In this document: in pieces, positions 12,247 to 29,358 of the stretch | Layout of the letters: the number at the start of each line of letters is the position of its first letter | How positions within the stretch are numbered: position 1 is the first letter of the stretch | NCBI GenBank assembly: GCA_050178385.1 | Contig: JBFXGD010000026.1 | Location: 1 to 29,358, forward strand | DNA length: 29,358 bases | Source: Calditrichaceae bacterium | Lineage (GTDB): Bacteria; Calditrichota; Calditrichia; Calditrichales; JBFXGD01 | Direction: 5' to 3' | The notes under the pieces: generated by a model | What the model was told of the DNA's origin: nothing | Seen by the model: only the letters and a program-made list of their open reading frames with translations | The model's database searches: none | Position numbers and translations under genes: made by a program

Positions 12247-14382
12247 TCATACCAATGAAAATTTCTTCCTTAATAGCCACTCCAGCACGATGACACCAAT
12301 AATGAGAAACAGTACAAAAGGTTTGTACCACAAATCTATTTCACGGTCATTCTTAACTACTTTAGGAGCTGTTTCTACAATGCTGAGAAGTGAGTCAATT
12401 TTCTCTGAAGGCGCATAAATCCCGTTTCCCATCTTTGACAATTTTCTTAAAAAATCAGCATTTTGTCCCGTTTTTACATATTCCTTTTCAAACGGGATCA
12501 CCTCAATTTCTATTTTGTCAGTACCGAGCTCCGCCCCGTTCAGATATCCGCTTCCTGTGATTGCATATCTCCCTTCCCCCGGCGGTATAAAGTGCGCTAA
12601 ATAGTTACCGGAGCTGTCATTTTCAGTTTCGATGGTAAAATCCTGTTTTTGCCATTCAATTTTTAAAGTCAGTCTTCCGTCTGTAATCGGCCTGTATTCC
12701 GGGTTGTACAAATGGCCGATGATATTAATTTTATTACCCAGATAAAATTCCTTCCCGGAAATTTCAAGATTAACAGGTTTAACCTTTTTCTTATTAGATG
12801 CCCAACGGATTAAATGTGACAAAAAATTCATGTACCCGTCTTTGATTTCCTCCCTGTCCTGAACCAGAAAATGCCATTTCCAGAATCCCGAACCGTTTAA
12901 AACGGCTGATTTGACAGGAGGATCATCCAGTGTTGCAAGAATTTTATATCCTGACTGGTTACCGGTCCCCTTGATGAGAATTTTTGATTTTGGCTTTAAT
13001 CCGGTAATGTACTTAGAAAGCGGAATCGGTGGAATTTTGTTCCAGAACAGACTGTTTTTATCCGGTTCCGGGAACACGTTTACTATGGGATCACTTAAAT
13101 TGACTGAGCTCTCACTTATAGTTATTGCGACGGAGCTTATATGCTCAGGCTTGCTGCTAAACGGAAGGTAGTCCGAAAACGAATCAAGGGAATTAATATT
13201 TGTGTTTTCTCCGACAAATACGATAAAAGCGGGCTGATTTTTTCTAATTGTTGATATAAGTTTTTCTATCGAAGGCGGCCGTGTAAATCTTCCCGGGTAG
13301 TCCTGAAACAGGATTACATCCAGACTGTCAATCATTTGATAACCGGGTGACTGAATATAATTTCCGTCAATATCTTCAACGAATAAATATGTTTCCATAT
13401 TAATCTGCCGCCCCAGCAACAACCTTATAAATTTACTTTCATATCCAGCGGTCCCGGCAAAAATACCAATTCGCAATTTACTCTTCAGGACATCCTGTAT
13501 AAATACAAAATGGTTGTTTACGGAGTTTTTCTCACCTTCAAACCCATCCAGCTCCAACTTAAACTTTTGAGATCCGCTCTTCCCTGGAGTATAATAAAAA
13601 ATCACACTCTGCTCAGTATTAGGATTATCGATTCTAATCGTTTTGGATGAAATTAATCCGCCGTCTGAACTGAATTTCAGATTAAGGTTCTGCCCGCTGA
13701 AATTGTTATTACTAATGATCACCTCAATTTCTTGCTCAGCATCCTGATAAACGACCGGTTTATAGATCACATCCGAGATAAGGACATCATCACCCGAATC
13801 TTCCCCGCCGATACCGATAGTATGTATTTTGACTGAACTTTTTCGGTTTCCGGAGAGCGGTGATTCTCCTTCGGTCATGTTGCCATCGCTGATGATGAAT
13901 ATCTGTCCACCGTTTAATCTGTCAATCAGATTCATTAAATTTGAAAAATTAGTCCCGGAGTTACTAATCGATAAAGTATCGGTAAGAACAGGATCCGTCT
14001 CTGAACTAAACCGGTACCAATGGAGCGAAGCATGGTCTTCCAAACGAGTTTTTAGCCGTTTAGCCGTGTCCAGCGTTTGCTTCCAGCGGTCAGGATCACT
14101 TTCTGAGCCCTGCATCGATGCCGAATTATCAATAAAGACAGAAATTTCTTCTTTTTTCGTTTCTGAATTTCGAATAAACAGACGGGGAGAAAAAAACAAC
14201 ATCAGAAGAAGAAACAGAACAGATGCCCGCAGTGAGCCCAGAATAAATTTTACTTTCGAGCTGCTTTGAGGCGTCGTTGTTCTGTACAACCACACCGCCG
14301 GAAGGACAGAAATGGCCAGCAAAAAAATCAGTATAATAAAAGGAATATTAAATCTGATAAGTTCAGGAAAAAAATTTTGCAT
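12247..14382 (-). CDS. VWA-domain membrane protein with Ig-like and GATase-like modules
   Basis: Two N-terminal TMs, MIDAS DNSAS...T...SDG, IHTIGIG, W.W motif, and a C-terminal TM ending EWLLRK. Confidence 0.7.
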   Translation of the reverse strand: MQNFFPELIRFNIPFIILIFLLAISVLPAVWLYRTTTPQSSSKVKFILGSLRASVLFLLLMLFFSPRLFIRNSETKKEEISVFIDNSASMQGSESDPDRWKQTLDTAKRLKTRLEDHASLHWYRFSSETDPVLTDTLSISNSGTNFSNLMNLIDRLNGGQIFIISDGNMTEGESPLSGNRKSSVKIHTIGIGGEDSGDDVLISDVIYKPVVYQDAEQEIEVIISNNNFSGQNLNLKFSSDGGLISSKTIRIDNPNTEQSVIFYYTPGKSGSQKFKLELDGFEGEKNSVNNHFVFIQDVLKSKLRIGIFAGTAGYESKFIRLLLGRQINMETYLFVEDIDGNYIQSPGYQMIDSLDVILFQDYPGRFTRPPSIEKLISTIRKNQPAFIVFVGENTNINSLDSFSDYLPFSSKPEHISSVAITISESSVNLSDPIVNVFPEPDKNSLFWNKIPPIPLSKYITGLKPKSKILIKGTGNQSGYKILATLDDPPVKSAVLNGSGFWKWHFLVQDREEIKDGYMNFLSHLIRWASNKKKVKPVNLEISGKEFYLGNKINIIGHLYNPEYRPITDGRLTLKIEWQKQDFTIETENDSSGNYLAHFIPPGEGRYAITGSGYLNGAELGTDKIEIEVIPFEKEYVKTGQNADFLRKLSKMGNGIYAPSEKIDSLLSIVETAPKVVKNDREIDLWYKPFVLFLIIGVIVLEWLLRKKFSLV

Positions 14383-16368: not shown

Positions 16369-17163
16369 TTATTCGAATTTGATGAAAATTTTATCCTTGA
16401 GGGGATCGAATTCCAATTTTTCCCGGGCGTTTCCCCTGCAGACAGCAATTTCAAGATAATTTTGACTGTTCCATAAGGCCAGAATTTCTCCCGGCTCCTT
16501 TTCTGTATAGTACCTGTTGATCTCAGATGTTTTAAAATTTTTAGTCTTGATCGATGTTATTTTTTCTTTTTTTATTCTGAATAGATCCGTTTTCGAAAAT
16601 CCTGTAATAATATTTCCGAACCGATCGATAGCGATGGGTTCAACTGCAATCTCCCCGCCTACTTTGGCAAAAAAAGAATGGGGCATTTCCGTCCGGTTGT
16701 CCAGCTTTCTTCCAAGTTTGCTCATAGAAACGCCTTTTAGCAGTTTCGCCACAACGGGAGCGAAGATATCCCTGGCGTGAAAAGTCGAACTTTCAGAACC
16801 CCCGGATATTTTATCAGTGTCTATTTCGTAGGCTGTATAAGCCTCTCTGGAAAGGATATATTTAAAGATACCGTTGTCAGGACCGACAAAGGTATGATGT
16901 GCGGTCCGGATAATTAAAGCGCGACGGTTCCCGCCAACCCCGGGATCGACTACGGCAAGATGAATCGTATCCTTCGGGTAATAAGAGTAGAAGTTCAGCA
17001 GCGTGAATGCCGCCGCATTGATATCGAACGCGCCAATTTCGTGGGTAATGTCAATGATTTCAGCAGCCGGCGCGAGTGATTTTATGACACCTTTGACACT
17101 GCCGGCATAGCCATCCAGTGTTCCAAAATCACTCAAAAATGTTACAAGTTGTCTATCTTCCAT
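16369..17163 (-). CDS. SAM hydroxide adenosyltransferase (DUF62; SAM-dependent chlorinase/fluorinase family)
   Basis: LSDFG..D, IDITH, VVDPGVG..RR, GPDNG, STFHARD and IDRFGN. Start moved to ATG 17163 (MEDRQLVTF, GAGGG RBS) rather than 17253, which lies inside mutM. Confidence 0.92.
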   Translation of the reverse strand: MEDRQLVTFLSDFGTLDGYAGSVKGVIKSLAPAAEIIDITHEIGAFDINAAAFTLLNFYSYYPKDTIHLAVVDPGVGGNRRALIIRTAHHTFVGPDNGIFKYILSREAYTAYEIDTDKISGGSESSTFHARDIFAPVVAKLLKGVSMSKLGRKLDNRTEMPHSFFAKVGGEIAVEPIAIDRFGNIITGFSKTDLFRIKKEKITSIKTKNFKTSEINRYYTEKEPGEILALWNSQNYLEIAVCRGNAREKLEFDPLKDKIFIKFE

Positions 17164-17180
17164 TTTATTTACCCTCATTT

Positions 17181-17981
17181 TCAGGTTTGACACATGGGAC
17201 AAAAATGAGTTCCTCTTCCCGCAAATTTGATTTTCTTTACCGGGGTGCCACATACACCACAGGGCAAGCCCTGTCTTCCGTAGACCTTCAAAAAACGCTG
17301 ATTATTACCTGAATTACCGAAGGCGTCCCGGTAATCGGATATTGTCGTTCCCATGTTCTTAACAGCTGATCTCAATACTTGCTGAAGGACCAAAAACAGT
17401 TCTCCGGCGCGCCGATCAGGTATCGCCGCCGCAGATGTCCCGGGATGTATCCCCGCCCGGAAAAGAGATTCGTCAACGTAAATATTGCCAAGTCCCGAAA
17501 TATATTTCTGAGAAAGAAGAAAAGCTTTTATACTCATCCTGCTGAGCGACAATAAATTTTTAAATATTTTCATGTCCATTTTCGGATCGAGAGCATCACG
17601 ACCTACATTCTCCAGAAACGATTCATCGTGATCCACATGATAAATCCGACCGAATTTACGTGTGTCTTTGAAATTCAATGAACTCCCGTCATCAAAATGG
17701 ATTTTAACCCGAAGATGATTTTCTGACAAATTATTTGTATCGTTTTGATAGACAAGCTGACCGGTCATGCGCAAATGAATAATTAAAAACGTATTTGAAA
17801 GCCTGAATATAAGGTATTTACCTTTGCGTCCGATTGATTTAATCCTTTGTCCAGTCAACGGTTGGAAAGACATGTTTTGGAATGATTTTTCCCAAAACGG
17901 CCTCACAGTTTCAATCACTTTTCCTGTAACAAGGGATCTAAGCTCAACCGCTACTGTTTCGACTTCCGGTAATTCTGGCAT
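17181..17981 (-). CDS. mutM: Formamidopyrimidine-DNA glycosylase/AP lyase
   Basis: MPELPEVE, RKGKY, HLRMTG, D.RKFG, H2TH GLGNIY.DE and C-terminal zinc finger CGVC...CPMCQ. Confidence 0.98.
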   Translation of the reverse strand: MPELPEVETVAVELRSLVTGKVIETVRPFWEKSFQNMSFQPLTGQRIKSIGRKGKYLIFRLSNTFLIIHLRMTGQLVYQNDTNNLSENHLRVKIHFDDGSSLNFKDTRKFGRIYHVDHDESFLENVGRDALDPKMDMKIFKNLLSLSRMSIKAFLLSQKYISGLGNIYVDESLFRAGIHPGTSAAAIPDRRAGELFLVLQQVLRSAVKNMGTTISDYRDAFGNSGNNQRFLKVYGRQGLPCGVCGTPVKKIKFAGRGTHFCPMCQT

Positions 17982-19808: not shown

Positions 19809-20291
19809 TCAAAATTTATAACCGATCATTCGCAGGAAATCTTTTCTTTTTTTAATATCTTTTTCCTGTTCAACGCCTTTTGTCTTAATACCGTCAACTA
19901 CACCCAAAATACCTCTTCCCTGTTCAGTCTCAGCCAAAATTACTTCGACCGGATTGGCCGTCGCGCAAAATATTCTCGTTACTTCCGGAACCATTTTGAT
20001 GGAATTTAGAACATTGACCGGGAAAGCATTGCCGAGAAATATTATAAAACTGTGACCGGCGCTTAAATTAAGCGCGTTTTTCTTGGCCAGCTCGATTAAA
20101 TCATCATCCGTCCCGCTAAACCGCACAAGCGCGTCCTGTGATGCCTCACAAAACGCCAGACCGAATTTAATCGTAGGATTAATATTCATTATAGCTTCAT
20201 GAATATCTTCAACGGTTTTTATAAAGTGGGAATGCCCTAATATGAAGTTCATATCTTCAGGTTTGTCAATTTTTACAATTTTTAAATCCAT
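19809..20291 (-). CDS. DUF355 adenosine-specific kinase family protein
   Basis: N.ILGHSHFIKTVED, FGLAFCEAS, GHSF, CATANP, GRGILGVVDG and C-terminal IGYK. Confidence 0.9.
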   Translation of the reverse strand: MDLKIVKIDKPEDMNFILGHSHFIKTVEDIHEAIMNINPTIKFGLAFCEASQDALVRFSGTDDDLIELAKKNALNLSAGHSFIIFLGNAFPVNVLNSIKMVPEVTRIFCATANPVEVILAETEQGRGILGVVDGIKTKGVEQEKDIKKRKDFLRMIGYKF

Positions 20292-21389: not shown

Positions 21390-23300
21390 CTATCCCGGAA
21401 GAACGCCTTTTACCCTGTTGTTTCCTTTTCTCACAGTATAACCCGCTCTGTCACAATATTCGATCAGGGGAATGACATATTTTCTGCTGCTGTTTAAAAA
21501 ATCTTTTAGATGGGTGACTTCCAATTCCTCATTTTTTTCGAAATATTGTTTCAGAAATGTAATCAGTTCTCCAAGCGATTCTTTGTGCAGATAAAACTGG
21601 CCGTTAATTGAAACAAGAATACCCTCTTTTGCCAAATCACCGGAGATTGTTTTGGCGTCTTTTTCGGAAATATTGAAATCTTTTGCCAAAGCCGGCAGAT
21701 CAGGCACTGTAAACCGATCACGCCTGAAGCGATCTTCAACATTTCTCCTGATCTGATCCATTTCATTTGATTTTTTTATATTTTCAGTGAAATATACTTC
21801 CCCGTTAAAATATATGGATTCTGTATTCACGCCTCTCCCCAAAGAACGTTCAAGAAATACTTCACTCATCTGCATTTTTTTTGCGATGTTATAAATTTCT
21901 TTAAAATTCATTCCGATTTTATATTTTTTTTCTGACAGCTCTTTTCCGACCATTTCAATAATCTGATTCTGTCCCTGCTCCAGTTTCTTTGTTGAAATAT
22001 AATGGAGGATATTCTTATGCTCGAAGACAATGAGCGCATTTTGTTTTACGAGCTTCTGTAAAATATCATCAATTTTTTCAGGTTTTTCGAACCATGCCTG
22101 CTGAATTTCTTTATTTGTGATTGATCTGTAACCCGAAAATCGAAACATTTGTTTTAGTTTGTCATTCAGACTGCCATTTTTTAGAATCTCAAAATATGAT
22201 TCCCAGGTTTCTGTATCACGTTTTAATTTTGGCGGATTTATCTCAAGTACCCGCCCGCCCGCAATCGTTGTGACCGGCGAGAAACTCCTTATCAGAACAG
22301 GATCCCCCGGCGCCGTGACAGCTGTCTCATTTACTTTAATCCGGACATGCAGCAGTTCATTGGCTCCGGGTGAACGCTGGTTATCAAACCAGAATATTTT
22401 ACCCGAATGTTCGGCGGTACCCAGATGTACCCGGACAGCCATATGTTTTTTTAATTTTAATTTTAGATTTGAGACCGTTGTTATGAAGGCATGAAATTCC
22501 GACGTTGTGGTTATCATACCCGATTCCGCCAATACAACTCCTCGCTGTAATTCATCTTTATTTACGTTGGCCAGGTTGACAGCGGCCCGCTGACCCGAAT
22601 GCGCCTCCGTCACTTCATGCTGATGGATTTGCACACCTTTTACTCGCGTTTCTAAGCGTGCCGGAAAAATCTCGGCCCGGTCACCGGTTTTGATTACAGA
22701 CGATAATATTGTTCCGGTCACAACTGATCCAAAGCCTTTCGCGGAAAAACTGCGGTCAACATTCAACCTGAATGGCCTCTCATTTTCAACGTGGTTTAAT
22801 CCTTCTATCTTCCCGGTGAGCGCCAATTCCAGTTCACTGATCCCTTCGCCTTTGACCGCAGATACCGGGATAACAGGGACATTCTGAAATCCGTGCGAGA
22901 AAAGAAATTGATCAATTTCATCCTTCACTAAAGACAGCCATTCTTCATCCACCAGATCTGACTTGTTCAGGGCGACAACACCGTTCCGAACGCCAAAAAA
23001 TTTCAGAATTTCCAGATGTTCTATAGTCTGCGGCATTATTCCGTCATCGGCAGCTATTACAAGCAGAAACAAATTGACGGTACTGACTCCTGCTATCATA
23101 TTTCTTACAAAACGTTCATGACCGGGCACATCAATAATCGTTACATTGTTTTTCCAATATGCAAATCCTATATCGATTGTAATTCCCCGTTCGATTTCAT
23201 CCTTCAGGCGATCGGTTTCGATTCCGCTTAAAGCCCTGATAATAGCGGTTTTGCCATGGTCGATATGACCGGCCATACCTATTATTGTATGTTCATCCAT
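21390..23300 (-). CDS. selB: Selenocysteine-specific translation elongation factor
   Basis: [38 protein letters not shown]...GFG.VVTGT, GQR.AVN and C-terminal winged-helix SRKY.IPL.EY.D; 636 aa. Confidence 0.96.
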
Positions 23301-23390: not shown

Positions 23391-23807
23391 TTATTTAAAA
23401 ATTTCTGTTCCTTTAAAAAAATAATTAATCTCGAATGAAGCGGATTCCCGTGAATCGGAACCGTGAACAACGTTTCTTTCAATGCTGGTGCCCATATCAC
23501 CCCTGATGGTTCCCCTTGCCGCTTTTGCCGGGTCTGTCACACCGGTCAGGCTCCTCCAGCTTCTGACAGCATCGTTATTTTCCAGTATCATCAGGACACA
23601 CGGCCCCGAAATCATGTAGTCTATTAGAGAATTAAAAAACGGTTTTTGGCGATGTATATAATAAAATCCCTCCGCTTTTCGCCGGTCCAGGCGCTCCAGC
23701 CTCATCCCTATAATATTAATTCCTTCTTTTTCTATTCTGCTGATGATTTCACCGATAAGTCCGGCGGTAACACCATCCGGCTTAATAATCGCTAACGTTC
23801 TCTCCAT
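23391..23807 (-). CDS. ndk: Nucleoside-diphosphate kinase
   Basis: ERTLAIIKPDGV, FY..H..KPFF, GTIR and catalytic N.VHGSDS. Confidence 0.98.
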   Translation of the reverse strand: MERTLAIIKPDGVTAGLIGEIISRIEKEGINIIGMRLERLDRRKAEGFYYIHRQKPFFNSLIDYMISGPCVLMILENNDAVRSWRSLTGVTDPAKAARGTIRGDMGTSIERNVVHGSDSRESASFEINYFFKGTEIFK

Positions 23808-23878
23808 CGATCATCCCTGTTTGCTTTTCTCAGTCAAAATCTTTCTCATGTTATTGTTAAAATCTAATGTCAAACGAA

Positions 23879-25720
23879 TCAGCGCCAGCGCCAGCTACCG
23901 GGTTTCCTTGGCCGGGTAACGGGTTCATCTGATTTTATCAGCACCACAGGCTCTTTTTCTTTCCCGGTTGAAAACGGTACGGTGAACATCTCTTTGCGTT
24001 TTGATGGATCGATGCGGAAGGACTTTTCCGCGGCCCTGATAATCTCCGGTTTCAATCCTTCGGATGCGATAAGATCCGTGTATTTTTTTCGACCATCCAC
24101 AAGATCTTTAATATAATAATCCACCTGCTCAGGTGTATAAAAATTGCTGACATCATATTCCGGAATCGGTCTGCCTTCTACCGCGACAATTGATTTTGTG
24201 CCCAGAATTCCGTATTCGTAGGTATTGGTGCCTCTTAAATCTCCTCTTTGAATGGCAGCCATGAGACTCAGCGGTACCCTGTCCGTTTTTCTAATCATTT
24301 TTTTTCTGATGATTCCGTTTTCTTCCACGTCTTCTATAATCTCACCCATGCCGCCGGTGTTGTACATCATAAAACGGATCTTGCCGGGATACTTATCAAC
24401 AAGCATCATAATGATATCATGGAAGCGGTTAACCTTTTTACCGCGGGATCCGATGATAAACGGATCGGTTCCCACAATTCTGACCGATTCTCCCGCTTTT
24501 TCAGGGCTGGAGGCGTAGCTGTGCGTCGATTCACCCCAGAGGTACGCAAGAACTCCTTGTTCCGGCGTTAATTCCTGAGCATATGGCATGATCGTATTTC
24601 TGCGTGTAATGAACGCGAATATCAATCCGTCCATTTCATCGAGAGTCGGCAGATTGATGGTCGGAGCGCTGATGCTGATCAGCTTGCTGCCTCTTTTTAC
24701 ACGTAATTTATCTCTAAAAACAACCGCGCGGCCGTTTCCGCAAAGGCTTTCGTCAAGGAAATCAAGATCGCCTTTAGCATTCAGCATAACATTTTCGATC
24801 AGCGCGGACTTATCTATCAACGCGTTATACATTGCTTCCTGCTGATCAGGCATAACATCCGTTTTGACATAGAAATTATTTTCAGAACCGAGCGCGGAGC
24901 CGTCCGGAACAAGAAATGTGATGTCATCCTGCCCGACCTCTGTTGTCTCGCCACGCTCATGATCCAGTCCCAACTGGTGACAGGACCAGGTTGATTTACC
25001 TGTAGCGGTCATTCCGAACAAAAATACACCATACTTTTTTAATCTGCCTTCGCGCGGATCGCGCACCTTTACGATTTTGCTGCCGGAATGCAATCCGAGC
25101 ATCCCCTGTTCATCTGCTCTCCACATTGCCTGCCGTAAAAAGCCCTTTTTATCCTCGCCGAGATAATCAGATCCAAGGGCAATATTAAGATTATACTCCG
25201 GAAGCGAAAGGATCTGAGATCTTAGCATATGTTCTTCAGGAATATGAATCATAATAAAATTAGGCCCGGGCCTGGATGAGACATCAAACATGGTGCTTCC
25301 CCACATATAGGCCAGCCGGACATTCTTCGGATCAACAGTGCTGATATAAAAATCACAGACGGGATTAAATTTATCATTATTGCCCATTTGGCGGCGAACA
25401 TGGACAAACGGCAGGGTTTTAAGGAGATGCAGTACTTTTTCAAGCTGTTCGGGCGCATTTTCGATCAGTTTAAGCTGCTCGGCCGATGGTTTTGGCAGAC
25501 GAATTTTTGCACCGCCAAGATAGACCGTTTTGGCCGCGAGGCGATTTGAAATTTTTGACGACCATACATATGAGCCGTAATTTGTTTTATTCGCGAAACT
25601 TCTGGCCTGCCGCTCGAGCCAGCCCATATCAACCGTTCGTATATTTTTGCCGTTGAGAACTGGAATAAGTTCATCATAAAATTTTTTGTAATAGGCTTCG
25701 TTATATACATCTTTTGACAT
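23879..25720 (-). CDS. pckA: Phosphoenolpyruvate carboxykinase (ATP), divergent
   Basis: Motifs in the E. coli PckA order: NR (substrate Arg), YLGEDKKG, LHSG, FGMTATGKST, QDD, E..FYVKT, ENV, NGR and YNTG. Confidence 0.85.
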   Translation of the reverse strand: MSKDVYNEAYYKKFYDELIPVLNGKNIRTVDMGWLERQARSFANKTNYGSYVWSSKISNRLAAKTVYLGGAKIRLPKPSAEQLKLIENAPEQLEKVLHLLKTLPFVHVRRQMGNNDKFNPVCDFYISTVDPKNVRLAYMWGSTMFDVSSRPGPNFIMIHIPEEHMLRSQILSLPEYNLNIALGSDYLGEDKKGFLRQAMWRADEQGMLGLHSGSKIVKVRDPREGRLKKYGVFLFGMTATGKSTWSCHQLGLDHERGETTEVGQDDITFLVPDGSALGSENNFYVKTDVMPDQQEAMYNALIDKSALIENVMLNAKGDLDFLDESLCGNGRAVVFRDKLRVKRGSKLISISAPTINLPTLDEMDGLIFAFITRRNTIMPYAQELTPEQGVLAYLWGESTHSYASSPEKAGESVRIVGTDPFIIGSRGKKVNRFHDIIMMLVDKYPGKIRFMMYNTGGMGEIIEDVEENGIIRKKMIRKTDRVPLSLMAAIQRGDLRGTNTYEYGILGTKSIVAVEGRPIPEYDVSNFYTPEQVDYYIKDLVDGRKKYTDLIASEGLKPEIIRAAEKSFRIDPSKRKEMFTVPFSTGKEKEPVVLIKSDEPVTRPRKPGSWRWR

Positions 25721-25777
25721 ATCAGACTTCCCGTTAAATGATCAAAATTTCAGATTCATACTTCTCTTGCGACTAAT

Positions 25778-28123
25778 TCATTTTGATAAAATTTCTATCA
25801 TACGGTTTTGAATTTCCGGCAAGTTTCCGGCTCCGGTATTTACTGAATAACACACGGCGGACTTAAACAGTTTTCGGAATGATTTTTTCTGTAATTCCAG
25901 CCGTTCTGTTGTTTTCAGCAACAAATGCGGATTATAGAACGGCAGGTTTCCCCGTCCTTCTTCCATTATGGAACCGCTTGAAAATCCGCCTTCCAGAATC
26001 TGGAGCGCTTCATCAGGATCCATCACTGAAATTGCATTTCCGATTGGATCATTTTTTAAGATGAATACTGTGCTGATGTCAATGCGCTTCACATGTTTAC
26101 GCATACCACCTATCCAGTAGGGATCGAGCATCGCCGCTGAAGTTTTTGACGCTTCATAACAATACGGATAGCCACGGTCAAGGGAGCATTCTTCCATTGC
26201 CTGGCATTTTTGATTTTTACAATCTTCTTTGTTCATTACCACATTTTCACATTTACTGCGATCAAATAATTCACCGAGTCTTTGAAACACAGATGCGGAA
26301 TTTGTCGGGATGTATAATTTCCGTTCCGGGTTATCTGCTGCCGCGTATCCTCCCCCATAGCGCACAAAAACTATATCGTTTGAATGAAGGGCAATATTTT
26401 CATTCTGCAAAAGCTGATAAAAGAGCTCTGTTTTATGGGTTCCCTTCGGTCCCATCACAACGAATCCGGACCCGGAATAATCCGCCGACATGGCGCGCAA
26501 CGCATGCAAATCAAACAACCGCTCTCCCACATCTGTGACGAGGCCCAATGCCAGACTTCTAAGGGATCCGTAATAATCGGTATTGAACAGAATCCCTGTT
26601 TTTGTTTCTGAATTGTAAAATCCGTAAGGCTCCCGTCCGATGGCCCCTTCGACGGCATAAATAATTCCGTGCGGTTCTATATCCGCTTCAAGCTGTGCCG
26701 GATACCAGTTCTCCATCCAGAAATCATATAAATGCCCGTTATTAGTCCTTAACTGCACAATAACACCGTTTATATTGGCGTTCCACTCAAAATACCGATC
26801 GTATTTGAGCTGAGCCTCTGCCTCAGCGACAAGCGCGTCACGTTTTTCAATATTCAGAGTTGAATCGACAGAAACCGGTTTTTTGAGACTGGTGACCATA
26901 TTATTGAGTTTTGTATGTTTTACCCTGGCGGGTGTTTTCAGCTTCATAAGAGCTTCTGTAATGCGCTCCATACCCTTTTCAATACTTTTCATGGATGTGG
27001 CGTATGAAATGCGGATATAATCATCTGCGCCGAAAGCGGCACCAGGAATTAATGCAACTTTTGCTTCTCTTAAAAGGTAGTAAGCCAGCCCGTAAGAATT
27101 GCGTATATAAGTGCCGTTAAATTCTTTCCCGAAGTAAGAAGAGATATTCGGAAAAACATAGAACGCGCCTTCGGGATTATGGCATGACACACCGGGGATT
27201 GTACCGAGTTTATACATGATATAATTGCGCCGCTTCTGAAATTCGCTTGTCATCCGTGAGATTTCATACTGCGGGCCGTTCAGCGCTTCCATACTCGCGT
27301 ATTGGGAAATTGTTGAAGCATTCGATGTACTGTGGCTCTGAATTTTCTCCGAACCGTTTATGATTTCAGCCGGTCCGGCCGCGTATCCAATCCGCCAGCC
27401 GGTCATGGCATACGCTTTTGAAACACCATTGATTAAGATCGTCTTTTGTTTGATTTTATTATTAAGTGAGGCAAAACTGATAAATTTAAAATCATCATAG
27501 ACCAGCTTTTCATATATTTCATCAGAAATGACAAAAATATCTTCACTTTCAACAACTTCAGCCAGGGCTTCCAGTTCACTCCGTTTATACGCAGCGCCGG
27601 TCGGATTTGAAGGATTGCAGAGAATGACCGCTCTTGTGTTTGCGGAAATTGACTTGCGGAGCTGATCGGGAGTCACTTTAAAGCCGTTTTCTTCCTTTGT
27701 TGAAATGATGACCGGTTTACCCTGCGCAAGCAGCACCATTTCCGGATATGACACCCAATACGGCGCGGGGACAATGACTTCATCACCCGGATTTACTACT
27801 GAGAGAATTGCATTATACAAAGCCTGTTTTGCGCCGTTGGAAACAATGATTTCAGACATATCATAATCAAGATTATTATCTTCCTTTAGTTTTTTTGCGA
27901 TCGCTTTCCGCAATGGGACGATGCCCCTGTTGATCGTATATTTCGTCAGATCCTGGTCGATCGCTTTCTTTGCGGCGTCTTTGATAAACTGCGGCGTGGC
28001 AAAATCAGGTTCGCCGACACTGAAATCGACCACATCAATTCCTTCTGATTTCATCGCGATAGCTTTTGCCGCGATTTTTATAGTAGGCGAGATACTGATA
28101 TTCTTTATCCGTTCGGAGATCAC
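25778..28123 (-). CDS. Class I PLP aspartate aminotransferase fused to a C-terminal degenerate PEPCK/HPr-kinase-like P-loop domain
   Basis: Residues ~1-395: VGEPDF, NPSNPTG, SDEIY, SKAYAMTGWRIG (PLP lysine), GAFY and RISYA. Residues ~400-781: YYG, GPKGTHKT, SND, E..LY.PT, ENV and VNTG. GTG start with AAGGGG RBS. Confidence 0.88.
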   Translation of the reverse strand: MISERIKNISISPTIKIAAKAIAMKSEGIDVVDFSVGEPDFATPQFIKDAAKKAIDQDLTKYTINRGIVPLRKAIAKKLKEDNNLDYDMSEIIVSNGAKQALYNAILSVVNPGDEVIVPAPYWVSYPEMVLLAQGKPVIISTKEENGFKVTPDQLRKSISANTRAVILCNPSNPTGAAYKRSELEALAEVVESEDIFVISDEIYEKLVYDDFKFISFASLNNKIKQKTILINGVSKAYAMTGWRIGYAAGPAEIINGSEKIQSHSTSNASTISQYASMEALNGPQYEISRMTSEFQKRRNYIMYKLGTIPGVSCHNPEGAFYVFPNISSYFGKEFNGTYIRNSYGLAYYLLREAKVALIPGAAFGADDYIRISYATSMKSIEKGMERITEALMKLKTPARVKHTKLNNMVTSLKKPVSVDSTLNIEKRDALVAEAEAQLKYDRYFEWNANINGVIVQLRTNNGHLYDFWMENWYPAQLEADIEPHGIIYAVEGAIGREPYGFYNSETKTGILFNTDYYGSLRSLALGLVTDVGERLFDLHALRAMSADYSGSGFVVMGPKGTHKTELFYQLLQNENIALHSNDIVFVRYGGGYAAADNPERKLYIPTNSASVFQRLGELFDRSKCENVVMNKEDCKNQKCQAMEECSLDRGYPYCYEASKTSAAMLDPYWIGGMRKHVKRIDISTVFILKNDPIGNAISVMDPDEALQILEGGFSSGSIMEEGRGNLPFYNPHLLLKTTERLELQKKSFRKLFKSAVCYSVNTGAGNLPEIQNRMIEILSK

Positions 28124-28229: not shown

Positions 28230-29358
28230 TTATCCTTCATCTGATGTTTTTTTCTTTATAATCTTTCTGATATCCGCCCCGGTAAGAGCTTCTACGACTT
28301 CCGGCAGCTGAGCAATTATATCGGTTATCTGTCCGGTAATCTTCGATGTTCCCAGTTTGCCGTCATTTTGGATCATTACAATTTTATCAAGCTTTGACAG
28401 AGGCTCCGAAACCGCTCTGGCTATCTCCGGCATCTTCTCCATGATCATTTCATACATAGCCGCCTGATTATAAGATTCATAAGCTTTTGATTTCTTTGTC
28501 ATAGATTCCGCTTCTGCGCTACCGATCATTTTAATCCGGTCCGCGTCGGCGGCATCTTCCTGTTTTCTGACTTCAAGTTTTCCTTTGGATTCAGTTTCAA
28601 TCCTGTAGCGCTCAGCATCCGCTTCGGTTTTAACCTGAAATTTTCTTGCTTCCGCGGGTTTTATTATATTCGCTTCCAGCTCTTTTTGTTTTTTCCGGAT
28701 ACTCAATTCTTCGAGCTTGGTCGATTCTTCCATTTCAATTTTTTTGACACCGTATTCTTCTTTTTTAAGATTTTGCTGAATTTTAAACCGCTCAAGTTCA
28801 TAAGCCATATCCGCGCGTGCCTTTTTCTGGTTCACATCCACCTGCGATTCTGCCTTTTTTGCCTCATTATTCCACGAAGCTTTTGCCACTTCGGCCTCGG
28901 CTGCAAGTCTGGCGATTTCACCTTCTTTTTTGGCCTGCGCTGATTTAATCGTTATTTCCTTATCCTTCTCGGCACGGTCAACTTCCGCCTGATATTTTGC
29001 AGCCGTGATATGCGGCTTACTCAGCGCTTCGATATATCCCTGTGAATCGCTGATTTCTTTTAGACCAAAAGACATGAGAACCAGACCCATTTTTGAAAAA
29101 TCCGTGCGAAGGGCTTCGTTTACTCTTTTTGAGAATTCATTCCGCTTTGTAAAAATATCCTCAACCGTGAAAGTGCCGATCACTTCACGCACCATGCTAT
29201 CAAGAACGGTTGTGGAGACTTCCAGAATACCCTCGGTTCCTCGGCTTAAAAAGTTGGTTATGGCGAGATATAATGAATAATCACCGGTATCAATATTTAC
29301 CTGTGCTGTAAATTCCGCCGTGATAGGAATACCGTTCCGGGACAGTACTTCGGGAATT
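28230..29358 (-). CDS. Flotillin/SPFH family protein (5' end outside the window)
   Basis: Frame stays open past 29195 to the window edge (IPEVLSRNGIPITAEFTAQVNI...). SPFH pattern R..IG..TVE.I...R, D..GYIEAL, then EA-rich coiled coil and PEIARAVSEPL tail. Confidence 0.9.
   Translation of the reverse strand, partial: IPEVLSRNGIPITAEFTAQVNIDTGDYSLYLAITNFLSRGTEGILEVSTTVLDSMVREVIGTFTVEDIFTKRNEFSKRVNEALRTDFSKMGLVLMSFGLKEISDSQGYIEALSKPHITAAKYQAEVDRAEKDKEITIKSAQAKKEGEIARLAAEAEVAKASWNNEAKKAESQVDVNQKKARADMAYELERFKIQQNLKKEEYGVKKIEMEESTKLEELSIRKKQKELEANIIKPAEARKFQVKTEADAERYRIETESKGKLEVRKQEDAADADRIKMIGSAEAESMTKKSKAYESYNQAAMYEMIMEKMPEIARAVSEPLSKLDKIVMIQNDGKLGTSKITGQITDIIAQLPEVVEALTGADIRKIIKKKTSDEG

Follow-up and report, generated by a model that had tools for sequence, protein, structure and literature searches.

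The 29,358-nucleotide stretch of DNA analyzed here (the window) raises the question of why a protein that begins as an aspartate aminotransferase continues into a second half with no Pfam match, and how this 781-residue fusion relates to the phosphoenolpyruvate carboxykinase (PEPCK) encoded beside it. PEPCK and aspartate aminotransferase are textbook enzymes. The original prediction placed the fusion, the PEPCK, and a nucleoside-diphosphate kinase (ndk) in one operon, proposed that a dead PEPCK-like domain on the aminotransferase pairs with the active PEPCK, and assigned a supporting role to korAB. The pseudo-PEPCK domain, the intact PEPCK, and a functional link between them are upheld by our analysis, but the involvement of ndk and korAB and an obligate heteromer are not. 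The features of the locus are collected in Table 1.

Table 1. Features of the locus, with positions in the window and the basis of each assignment
Feature	Position	Strand	Description and basis
Flotillin (SPFH), 3' part	28230..29358	-	gene ~465 aa, N-terminal hydrophobic anchor; start on contig C17
Fusion gene, aspartate aminotransferase + pseudo-PEPCK	25778..28123	-	781 aa, GTG start
Subgroup-Iβ aspartate aminotransferase domain, residues 1-395	26939..28123	-	profile and PDB matches
Compact PEPCK-fold domain, residues ~405-781	25778..26911	-	predicted structure and profiles; remodelled active site
Altered P-loop GPKGTHKT, residues 558-565	26429..26452	-	Lys and Thr/Ser retained, Gly before Lys replaced
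Cys-rich insert (C625, C635, C640, C646, C655)	26159..26251	-	alignment of 90 fused rows
Divergent PEPCK, 613 aa	23879..25720	-	NF006821 (PRK09344.1-3) group, full catalytic set
Basic/aromatic C-terminal tail of 613-aa PEPCK (RPRKPGSWRWR)	23882..23917	-	alignment of 35 rows
ndk, nucleoside-diphosphate kinase, 138 aa	23391..23807	-	NDK above NCBIfam cut-off
selB, downstream flank, outside cassette	21390..23300	-	profile match and neighbourhood

A PEPCK-fold domain fused to an aspartate aminotransferase

The N-terminal half of the fusion matches Aminotran_1_2 at residues 30 to 388, and its best PDB matches are aspartate aminotransferases (E 1e-114). The residues expected of a fold type I PLP enzyme are invariant in 88 of 88 aligned rows (K236, the PLP lysine, with N173, D201, Y204, R244, and R371), as is K99, which we take to be the lysine for acidic substrates in subgroup-Iβ aspartate aminotransferases. 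The domain scores under the NCBIfam equivalog cut-offs (461.8 versus 617). We conclude that this half is an intact subgroup-Iβ aspartate aminotransferase with a predicted specificity; the genome has no other close copy of this phylum-wide housekeeping enzyme.

A frameshift or assembly artefact as the source of the fusion was ruled out by the 935 homologues of the C-terminal half; among the 120 matches listed, most are proteins of 750 to 792 residues with PF00155. Single-sequence searches with the C-terminal domain returned nothing in the PDB or Pfam, and BLASTP found no similarity to the neighboring PEPCK, so profiles and folds were needed to establish its identity. The predicted structure of the domain has a pLDDT of 91.9, and hhalign relates the domain to the neighboring PEPCK with a probability of 94%. 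Foldseek matches the model to ATP-PEPCKs (E 6e-18, TMq 0.73-0.75), and structural comparison (VIA) to 1ii2 gives Z 27.8 over 343 aligned residues with an rmsd of 3.2, compared to Z 11-12 for HPr kinases. By these TMq and Z values the domain has the two-lobed PEPCK fold. It ends soon after the NTG motif, and its lid loop is unconserved. The only clusters retrieved from the ESM Atlas were unnamed or HprK-tagged.

A remodelled active site

The active site was compared between 90 fused rows and 40 standalone relatives of the domain, using E. coli numbering. The positions considered were the manganese ligands K213, H232, and D269 and the substrate residues R65, K212, and R333; the numbers of R65, K212, K213, and D269 appear in PDB titles. 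D268 and K288 were compared as well. The standalone relatives have a near-complete active site, whereas most of these residues are replaced in the fused domain. Arginine occupies the Lys212 position in 86 of 90 fused rows (lysine in 35/40 standalone) and the His232 position in 87 of 90 (histidine in 35/40). Serine replaces Lys213 in 83 of the 90, and little remains of R65 (6/90 versus 27/40), D268 (3/90 versus 34/40), R333 (9/90 versus 36/40), and K288 (2/90). The glycine before the P-loop lysine survives in only 4 of 90 fused rows, compared to 35 of 40 standalone relatives. Only D269 is retained among the manganese ligands and substrate residues of an ATP-PEPCK (84/90), and with the glycine and the first aspartate gone the domain has no canonical GxxxxGKT/S P-loop with an Asp-Asp pair. 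Together, the fold matches and residue swaps agree with the original view of a PEPCK-like domain without catalytic ligands.

Other positions are kept, including the P-loop lysine K254 (87/90) and the P-loop Thr/Ser (86/90). Because K254 and D269 persist, the domain may have a changed catalytic activity, but the loss of the P-loop glycine speaks against normal nucleotide binding. Judged from the alignment, the active-site changes are fixed rather than random, and the domain is still under selection, with a distance ratio to the aminotransferase of 1.4-1.7. Each cysteine of the Cys-rich insert is found in 87 to 90 of the 90 fused rows, and the insert, which is likely a metal site, is absent from archaeal PEPCK-fused forms.

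The archaeal-type proteins that join the domain to an NF006821 PEPCK show the Lys-to-Arg and His-to-Arg swaps as well (5/5). A clade made up solely of the two remodelled groups, bacterial fusion and archaeal-type, is rejected (p-AU 0.003), which suggests a parallel origin for the His-to-Arg change at least. However, a single clade of all fused forms is not rejected (p-AU 0.19), which weakens the argument for convergence.

The neighboring PEPCK

The 613-residue neighbor had been predicted to be an intact PEPCK, and its residues bear this out. It matches PEPCK_ATP (E 4.7e-20) and exceeds the PF01293 cut-off (72.2 versus 26.5 bits), and the catalytic residues R60, Y186, K191, K192, H211, K242, D265, D266, K286, and R331 are each present in 35 of 35 rows. 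This protein is therefore a divergent PEPCK with a complete catalytic set and a predicted activity. It is the second PEPCK of the genome, which encodes a canonical PckA on contig C22. A passage of PMC2684135 describes the PCKs of A. pernix and Kuenenia as lacking a clear nucleotide motif. The C-terminal tail carries the motif R[PE][RK][RK] in 35 of 35 PEPCKs, with a column identity of 0.76 compared to 0.38 in the variable linker, and may serve in docking or membrane binding. Database records of both the fusion and the PEPCK proteins carry the name of Caldithrix abyssi, which offers a testable system.

Flotillin is the most constant neighbor of the fusion

The gaps of 57 and 71 nt between the fusion, PEPCK, and ndk genes proved exact when the open reading frames were checked, and the three genes are co-oriented as had been stated. 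These properties say little here because every one of the window's 27 genes is encoded on the minus strand and most gaps are short (median 26 nt; 19 of 26 gaps at most 71 nt). The claim that no terminator is evident roughly holds, except for one weak 5-bp terminator-like match at the PEPCK stop (23893-23880); such matches number 15 in the window, versus 10.1±2.9 in shuffles. A promoter-like site scoring 9/12 precedes ndk (23837-23810), and none of four intergenic regions folds better than its own shuffles.

The boundaries originally given to the unit were wrong, since the conserved unit is flotillin–fusion–PEPCK. The flotillin gene, which the original prediction did not mention, lies 106 nt upstream of the fusion. 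Flotillin precedes the fusion in 50 of 53 loci and in every one of 39 additional loci from Aminicenantia (89/92 together), whereas PEPCK follows it in 39 of 54, making flotillin the more constant neighbor. Flotillin is not obligatory, because two (L038 and L042) of the three Ignavibacteriales genomes that keep the fusion have enough upstream DNA and show no adjoining flotillin. In this lineage, the cassette is flanked by selA, upstream on contig C17, and by selB, downstream.

The fusion–PEPCK–ndk order is not conserved: among 34 loci with the PEPCK and 2.3 kb or more of downstream sequence, ndk adjoins in only 3. A second ndk is present on contig C1, and the ndk of this locus is a local passenger rather than part of a conserved cassette. 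Likewise, a partnership with korAB finds no support, as this pair lies ~17 kb away and is absent from every bacterial fusion locus fetched (flanks up to 8 kb). A korAB-like pair is found near the standalone gene in two Thermoplasmata loci, both from one lineage.

Of 78 Calditrichota genomes, the same 21 contain the domain, the 613-aa-type PEPCK, and this flotillin. This partner-PEPCK subgroup was never found without the fusion (21/21 in Calditrichota, 14/14 in Aminicenantia), and all 14 Aminicenantia copies are directly behind it. The reverse does not hold. Among 53 Aminicenantia fusion genomes, 39 gave no partner-PEPCK match while retaining flotillin and a conserved domain, so an obligate metabolon is not supported and an obligate heteromer is contradicted. 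A quick tree places two separate PEPCK losses. The linkage of fusion homologues to this PEPCK clade, whose absence the original prediction named as evidence against itself, fails in two lineages and persists in the rest. A GTP-PEPCK was considered as a replacement neighbor in PEPCK-less Aminicenantia and was found in 5 of 7 genomes checked, but neither the fusion nor its flotillin lay within the 3-8 kb fetched around it, and this replacement was rejected.

A functional link between the domain and PEPCK goes beyond chance, given the co-occurrence, the archaeal-type fusions of the dead domain to a related PEPCK (L067, L073-L075, and P0252), and an independent operon in fusion-less relatives, although the co-occurrence overstates independence because the counted genomes are related to one another and the genes sit together in a single cassette. 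This operon, which pairs an aminotransferase with a canonical PEPCK, was detected by its aminotransferase in 5 of 57 fusion-less versus 0 of 21 fusion-bearing Calditrichota genomes. The adjacency was read in G038, G039, G053, and G002-G004, and a search of 201 genomes of the phylum of G002 returned only the two cases already known. In L042, the fusion lies directly 3' of such an operon. Because aminotransferase and PEPCK genes pair without a pseudo-domain, the pathway link does not need one.

Possible roles of the pseudo-PEPCK domain

The reading that we favor, which we hold to be plausible though short of probable, is that flotillin, fusion, and PEPCK form a conserved unit in which the extra domain is a noncatalytic ligand-sensing and docking module on the main aminotransferase, joining the metabolism of amino acids to that of sugars. 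The fold, the residue swaps, the gene order, the co-occurrence, and the retention of fusion and flotillin after PEPCK loss are direct observations. The two fixed arginines at the Lys212 and His232 positions, with the retained P-loop lysine, may bind a polyanion without manganese, and this ligand could be PEP, oxaloacetate, or a nucleotide. Binding would then modulate the aminotransferase, or proteins that partner it, where aspartate, oxaloacetate, and PEP metabolism meet. Flotillin may gather the fusion at the membrane, where the divergent PEPCK would be an optional client, perhaps recruited via its basic tail; ndk and korAB would lie outside this assembly.

A more elaborate version appears somewhat unlikely. 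It holds that a flotillin-anchored assembly, itself undescribed, operates at this junction, and that an arginine-remodelled pseudo-PEPCK from an equally undescribed ~350-residue family of minimal PEPCK-like enzymes docks the active PEPCK, senses PEP or oxaloacetate, and sets the direction of flux. Docking of this kind is likened to the archaeal fusion, which holds both proteins in one chain. A complex prediction for the 613-aa PEPCK and the pseudo-domain, using alignments of 35 rows each and with controls not folded, scored 0.01 against a mark of 0.32 and counts neither for nor against docking.

We find it rather improbable that the dead domain and the active PEPCK instead make up a stable heteromer through which oxaloacetate is channelled from the aminotransferase while NDK supplies nucleotide. 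The archaeal-type fusions and the absence of the partner PEPCK from genomes without the fusion would fit such a complex. So would the modest relaxation of the domain after PEPCK loss (distance ratio 1.73 versus 1.40; 12 of 112 conserved columns falling below 70%, compared to 5 of 149 in the aminotransferase), but this relaxation rests on one clade and 100 of the 112 columns stay conserved. The many Aminicenantia genomes without the PEPCK, its repeated loss, its placement elsewhere or on the other strand in L048 and L052-L055, and the rarity of an adjoining ndk all argue against a stable complex. A passage of PMC5976638 provides a precedent in the channelling of oxaloacetate between malate dehydrogenase and citrate synthase, but the same review states that channelling does not raise the steady-state rate of most enzymes.

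Equally doubtful is the proposal that the genes are merely co-expressed, with aminotransferase and PEPCK adjoining for pathway reasons and the dead domain performing a separate structural task, for example with flotillin, unrelated to PEPCK or sensing. The steadier association with flotillin than with PEPCK and the plain aminotransferase–PckA operon favor this proposal, as does the second structural match to the model (Z 21.4), the PEPCK-like subunit NDUEG2 of Euglena complex I, which its authors, in a passage of PMC10884005, judge unlikely to be functional and regard as structural. However, it leaves unexplained both the pocket arginines fixed in 86 to 87 of 90 rows and the archaeal-type proteins in which the domain is joined directly to PEPCK.

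Least probable is a remodelled phosphotransferase of new, HPr-kinase-like specificity with flotillin, the PEPCK tail, or a small molecule as its substrate: the retained P-loop lysine, Thr/Ser, and D269 (in HPr kinase, the catalytic base is the second Asp of this pair), the near-complete active site of standalone relatives, and best PDB sequence matches of the profile to HPr kinases (E 0.0014-0.007) count in its favor, but the P-loop glycine, D268, K288, and R333 are mostly lost, and the fold spans both PEPCK lobes (Z 27.8 over 343 residues, versus Z 11.7 over 133 for HPr kinase).

In hundreds of genomes, the main aminotransferase bears a PEPCK-fold pseudoenzyme that has escaped annotation and is linked to a flotillin gene. 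If the domain indeed serves metabolite sensing or membrane organization, it would represent a new regulation of the PEP-oxaloacetate node and a rare link of bacterial flotillins to central metabolism. The standalone relatives are candidates for a minimal PEPCK.

Comparison with known systems

No description of an aspartate aminotransferase–pseudo-PEPCK fusion was found in the literature searched. The aminotransferase half resembles subgroup-Iβ enzymes (1j32, 6f35, 6f77, 1bkg; NF004769) over its full length (E 1e-114 to 1e-89), with all PLP and substrate residues invariant, but none of the bacterial and archaeal PDB matches (370-431 residues) has a C-terminal domain as large as that of the fusion.

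With PckA (PF01293; 1ii2, 1aq2, 1ayl, 1yvy, 2pc9), the fused domain shares both lobes (model residues 4-382 on 1ii2 29-444), the P-loop lysine, and the ENV and NTG motifs. In contrast, it is ~150 residues shorter, shows 15-16% identity, has lost most of the metal and PEP ligands, and differs further in its Cys-rich insert and its fusion to an aminotransferase. The 613-aa PEPCK has every catalytic residue of PckA but is distant from the solved structures (phmmer E 2e-5 at best) and bears the conserved basic tail. Its best family is NF006821 (PRK09344.1-3), in which it scores 271.6 bits, under the cut-off of 369 that the archaeal-type fusions pass with 429 and 437 bits; its own subgroup is bacterial and was found solely alongside the fusion.

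HPr kinase/phosphorylase (PF07475; 1ko7, 1jb1, 1knx) has a P-loop/beta-hairpin core in common with the fused domain (Z 11-12, ~135 residues), but it matches the C-terminal lobe only; the canonical P-loop and Asp pair of these enzymes are altered in the fused domain, and that of the window has no PF07475 match. NDUEG2 (8j9h; PMC10884005) is also a truncated PEPCK-fold component of a larger assembly, although it is eukaryotic, 11% identical, located in respiratory complex I, and not fused to an aminotransferase.

Finally, the flotillin of the window has the N-terminal anchor, SPFH domain, coiled coil, and Flot domain of bacterial flotillin (SPFH2) operons such as yuaF-yuaG (PMC2636767). Those operons usually include an NfeD gene, whereas here the 450-nt gap upstream is without an NfeD-sized ORF and a metabolic fusion enzyme takes the place of constant partner.

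Anatomy of the fusion protein

The 781-aa fusion is real and common: its C-terminal half is matched by 935 proteins of similar length, the best 120 of which, the window's own excepted, are 54-74% identical to it. For the aminotransferase half, the best PDB match is 1j32 (E 1e-114), and the PLP and substrate residues are invariant in 88/88 rows; this half is predicted to be an intact subgroup-Iβ aspartate aminotransferase. One close match to it occurs in 58 of 78 Calditrichota genomes, 21 of which bear the extra domain, and it is the housekeeping copy of the phylum.

Neither Pfam nor a single-sequence search of PDB gives a match for the C-terminal 382 residues. The model of this domain (pLDDT 91.9, pTM 0.90) matches ATP-PEPCKs along its whole length in Foldseek (E 6e-18, TMq 0.73-0.75) and aligns with 1ii2 (VIA; Z 27.8, rmsd 3.2, 343 aligned). 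Profile comparison with the neighboring PEPCK gave a probability of 94%. One distant relative of the domain, P0304 (754 aa), contains an intein (PF14890).

Active-site residues were tallied in an alignment of three sets: 90 aminotransferase-fused domains, 40 standalone relatives chosen by hand, and 5 forms fused to PEPCK. The 90 comprise the window's domain, 76 of 119 database matches (those passing a filter on length and motifs), 11 from loci, and 2 representatives. In E. coli numbering, R65, Y207, K212, K213, K254, and D269 were taken from PDB titles; H232, D268, K288, and R333 are likewise active-site positions. The 40 standalone relatives keep R65 in 27 cases, D268 in 34, R333 in 36, and K212, H232, D269, and the P-loop Gly and Lys in 35 each. 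Among the 90 fused domains, arginine replaces K212 in 86 and H232 in 87, and few retain the P-loop Gly (4), Asp268 (3), K288 (2), or R333 (9); K254 (87) and D269 (84) are still present, and a five-cysteine insert is common to 87-90 of the rows. These tallies make PEPCK catalysis by the fused domain very unlikely, and show a pocket remodeled in a fixed manner.

The standalone PEPCK-fold proteins (~320-400 aa; L078-L102, L056/L058/L059, P0206, P0222, P0240, P0243, P0250) occur in Thermoplasmata, Dehalococcoidia, and probably Bathyarchaeia. They keep nearly the whole PEPCK active site, K213 excepted, and may represent either a minimal PEPCK or a kinase related to it; the sources give them no name, and the one member tested has no NCBIfam family.

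A flotillin–aminotransferase::pseudo-PEPCK–PEPCK cassette

Features of the locus in the window and on contig C17 of the same genome (G000)
Feature	Coordinates	Strand	Annotation or position
selA	G000:C17:991-2397		flotillin start 450 nt below it
Flotillin gene, window part	28230-29358	-	3' end 106 nt upstream of fusion; start on C17
Flotillin gene, C17 part	G000:C17:1-539		~98% amino-acid identity to window part
Fusion gene, 781 aa	25778-28123	-	Pfam/NCBIfam: class I/II aminotransferase, residues 30-388 only
Partner PEPCK gene, 613 aa	23879-25720	-	Pfam/NCBIfam: PEPCK_ATP
ndk, 138 aa	23391-23807	-	Pfam/NCBIfam: NDK
selB	21390-23300	-	next after ndk
Adenosine-specific kinase family gene	19809-20291	-	
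SAM hydroxide adenosyltransferase family gene	16369-17253	-	
711-aa ORF	12247-14382	-	directly after tsaD; no Pfam or NCBIfam match

The original prediction was of an operon comprising the fusion, PEPCK, and ndk genes. The three minus-strand ORFs and their spacings of 57 and 71 nt are confirmed; because all 27 genes in the window are co-oriented, with gaps that have a median of 26 nt and in 19 of 26 cases do not exceed 71 nt, this layout carries little information. In a consensus scan, the PEPCK stop showed a single weak hairpin of terminator type, and ndk was preceded by a promoter-like site scoring 9/12. The window's 15 terminator-like matches are not far above the 10.1±2.9 in shuffles, and none of the intergenic regions outdoes its shuffled versions in folding.

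Membership of ndk was not borne out by 61 GTDB loci (58 bacterial), since, of 34 loci with the partner PEPCK and 2.3 kb or more of downstream DNA, it appears in 3. Flotillin lies directly upstream of the fusion in 50 of 53 loci with at least 1.5 kb of upstream DNA (one of the three misses, L016, is too short to contain it), and the partner PEPCK immediately follows in 39 of 54 testable loci. The actual unit is thus the flotillin–fusion–PEPCK cassette rather than a PEPCK-ndk operon, and the original interpretation is borne out in part.

The best-matching named locus is from a Calditrichaceae genome (96% identity); G000 is 94% complete. The flotillin-fusion-PEPCK-ndk block sits between selA and selB, as in L001 and, without ndk, L024. 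The overlapping flotillin parts suggest a strain-variant assembly break. Some cassette copies elsewhere have a gene that is split or carries a frameshift, whether by assembly error or by decay: the fusion gene in L060 and L140, and the PEPCK gene in L003 (9178-11051) and L055. The SAM hydroxide adenosyltransferase and adenosine-specific kinase family genes sit near each other, a hint of adenosine/SAM salvage.

The partner PEPCK keeps every tallied catalytic residue in 35/35 orthologues. At its C-terminus, a variable linker leads into a conserved tail that is basic and rich in tryptophan. It is a second PEPCK, since canonical PckA is present on contig C22 of G000.

Of 78 Calditrichota genomes, the 21 with the domain are also those with the PEPCK subgroup and the orthologous flotillin; they are kin with one common cassette rather than 21 independent events. 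Beyond these, 12 genomes have distant flotillins only and two have weak canonical PckA matches. Among 121 sampled genomes of the Aminicenantia class, the domain occurs in 53. The partner PEPCK is present in 14 of them, each time immediately after the domain, and 39 gave no match. Flotillin is upstream in all 39 Aminicenantia loci checked (28 of the 39 PEPCK-less and 11 of the 14 PEPCK-bearing). A quick tree of 100 loci, whose fused set omits three Thermoplasmata rows and 11 rows that are short or broken, requires two PEPCK losses: one in a large clade of Aminicenantia, the other in a clade of Ignavibacteriales type. After loss the domain drifts slightly faster (ratio 1.73 vs. 1.40), and 100 of 112 conserved columns hold.

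Because PEPCK was lost where the fusion and its conserved columns stay, the dependence is one-way: the partner PEPCK is unseen without the fusion, and the fusion does well without PEPCK. As most of these genomes are incomplete, a lone absence says little; the argument rests on the pattern across the clade together with one single-contig genome, L049. In six other Aminicenantia genomes the domain is absent and the PEPCK is a more distant member of the group. Such distant, fusion-less PEPCKs in the small genomes G102, G108, G114, and G119 have one in-match TGA, which may simply be a true stop before the tail region.

Aminotransferase-PEPCK links beyond the cassette

Archaeal-type proteins of 835-912 aa (P0252, L067, L073-L075) carry a remodeled copy of the domain and an NF006821 PEPCK in one chain, with the same two arginines in 5/5; their archaeal origin is presumed from ESM Atlas cluster taxa. 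A tree uniting them with the remodeled bacterial forms is rejected (p-AU 0.003), and one uniting all fused forms is compatible with the data (p-AU 0.19). L068, L069, and L071 have a related PEPCK and no domain within the DNA fetched, which counts against fixed pairing.

One lineage is represented by 25 metagenome loci (L078-L102), and in 20 of them an intact standalone relative lies near an aminotransferase gene, on the opposite strand. In G038, G039, G053, and G002-G004, the canonical PckA start is overlapped by a different aminotransferase (35% identical); this aminotransferase is present in 5 of 57 fusion-less vs. 0 of 21 fusion-bearing Calditrichota genomes, with G059 and G060 assessed for the aminotransferase gene only. 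In this two-gene operon (L146-L149, L038:3-1948, L042:3821-6687), a 405-aa aminotransferase overlaps the start of a 550-aa canonical PckA; L146 and L147 have it behind a selA-like gene, the flotillin cassette's position. The fusion directly follows it in L042, and in G039 an unfused housekeeping aminotransferase takes that place. The recurring pairing supports a pathway link, and because it recurs without the domain, that link needs no pseudo-domain.

Possible roles and known systems

Our best, tentative reading is that the domain equips the main aminotransferase with a noncatalytic module for sensing and docking; what is shown of it is the anatomy and the genomic pattern only. In place of manganese, the two arginines would bind a polyanion; localizing the fusion would fall to flotillin, and the divergent PEPCK would be an optional client. 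The originally proposed heteromer, in which the domain pairs with the active PEPCK and so tethers the aminotransferase to channel oxaloacetate, is unlikely: the partner PEPCK is unseen without the fusion, but 39 of 53 domain-bearing Aminicenantia genomes gave no match to it. We are equally doubtful that the genes are merely co-expressed, with the domain serving a separate structural role. A remodeled kinase is less probable still, since HPr kinases match the domain model in its C-terminal lobe only (Z 11-12). PEPCK operates near equilibrium and can run both ways (PMC8100219), so flux in either direction would fit.

A full-text literature search, with thin coverage of subscription papers, found no description of the fusion, a bacterial pseudo-PEPCK, or the cassette. 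The fusion belongs to an already known kind, the pseudoenzyme fusion. As described in PMC10884005, NDUEG2 of Euglena, a complex I subunit, resembles the domain in being a truncated PEPCK-like protein thought unlikely to be functional.
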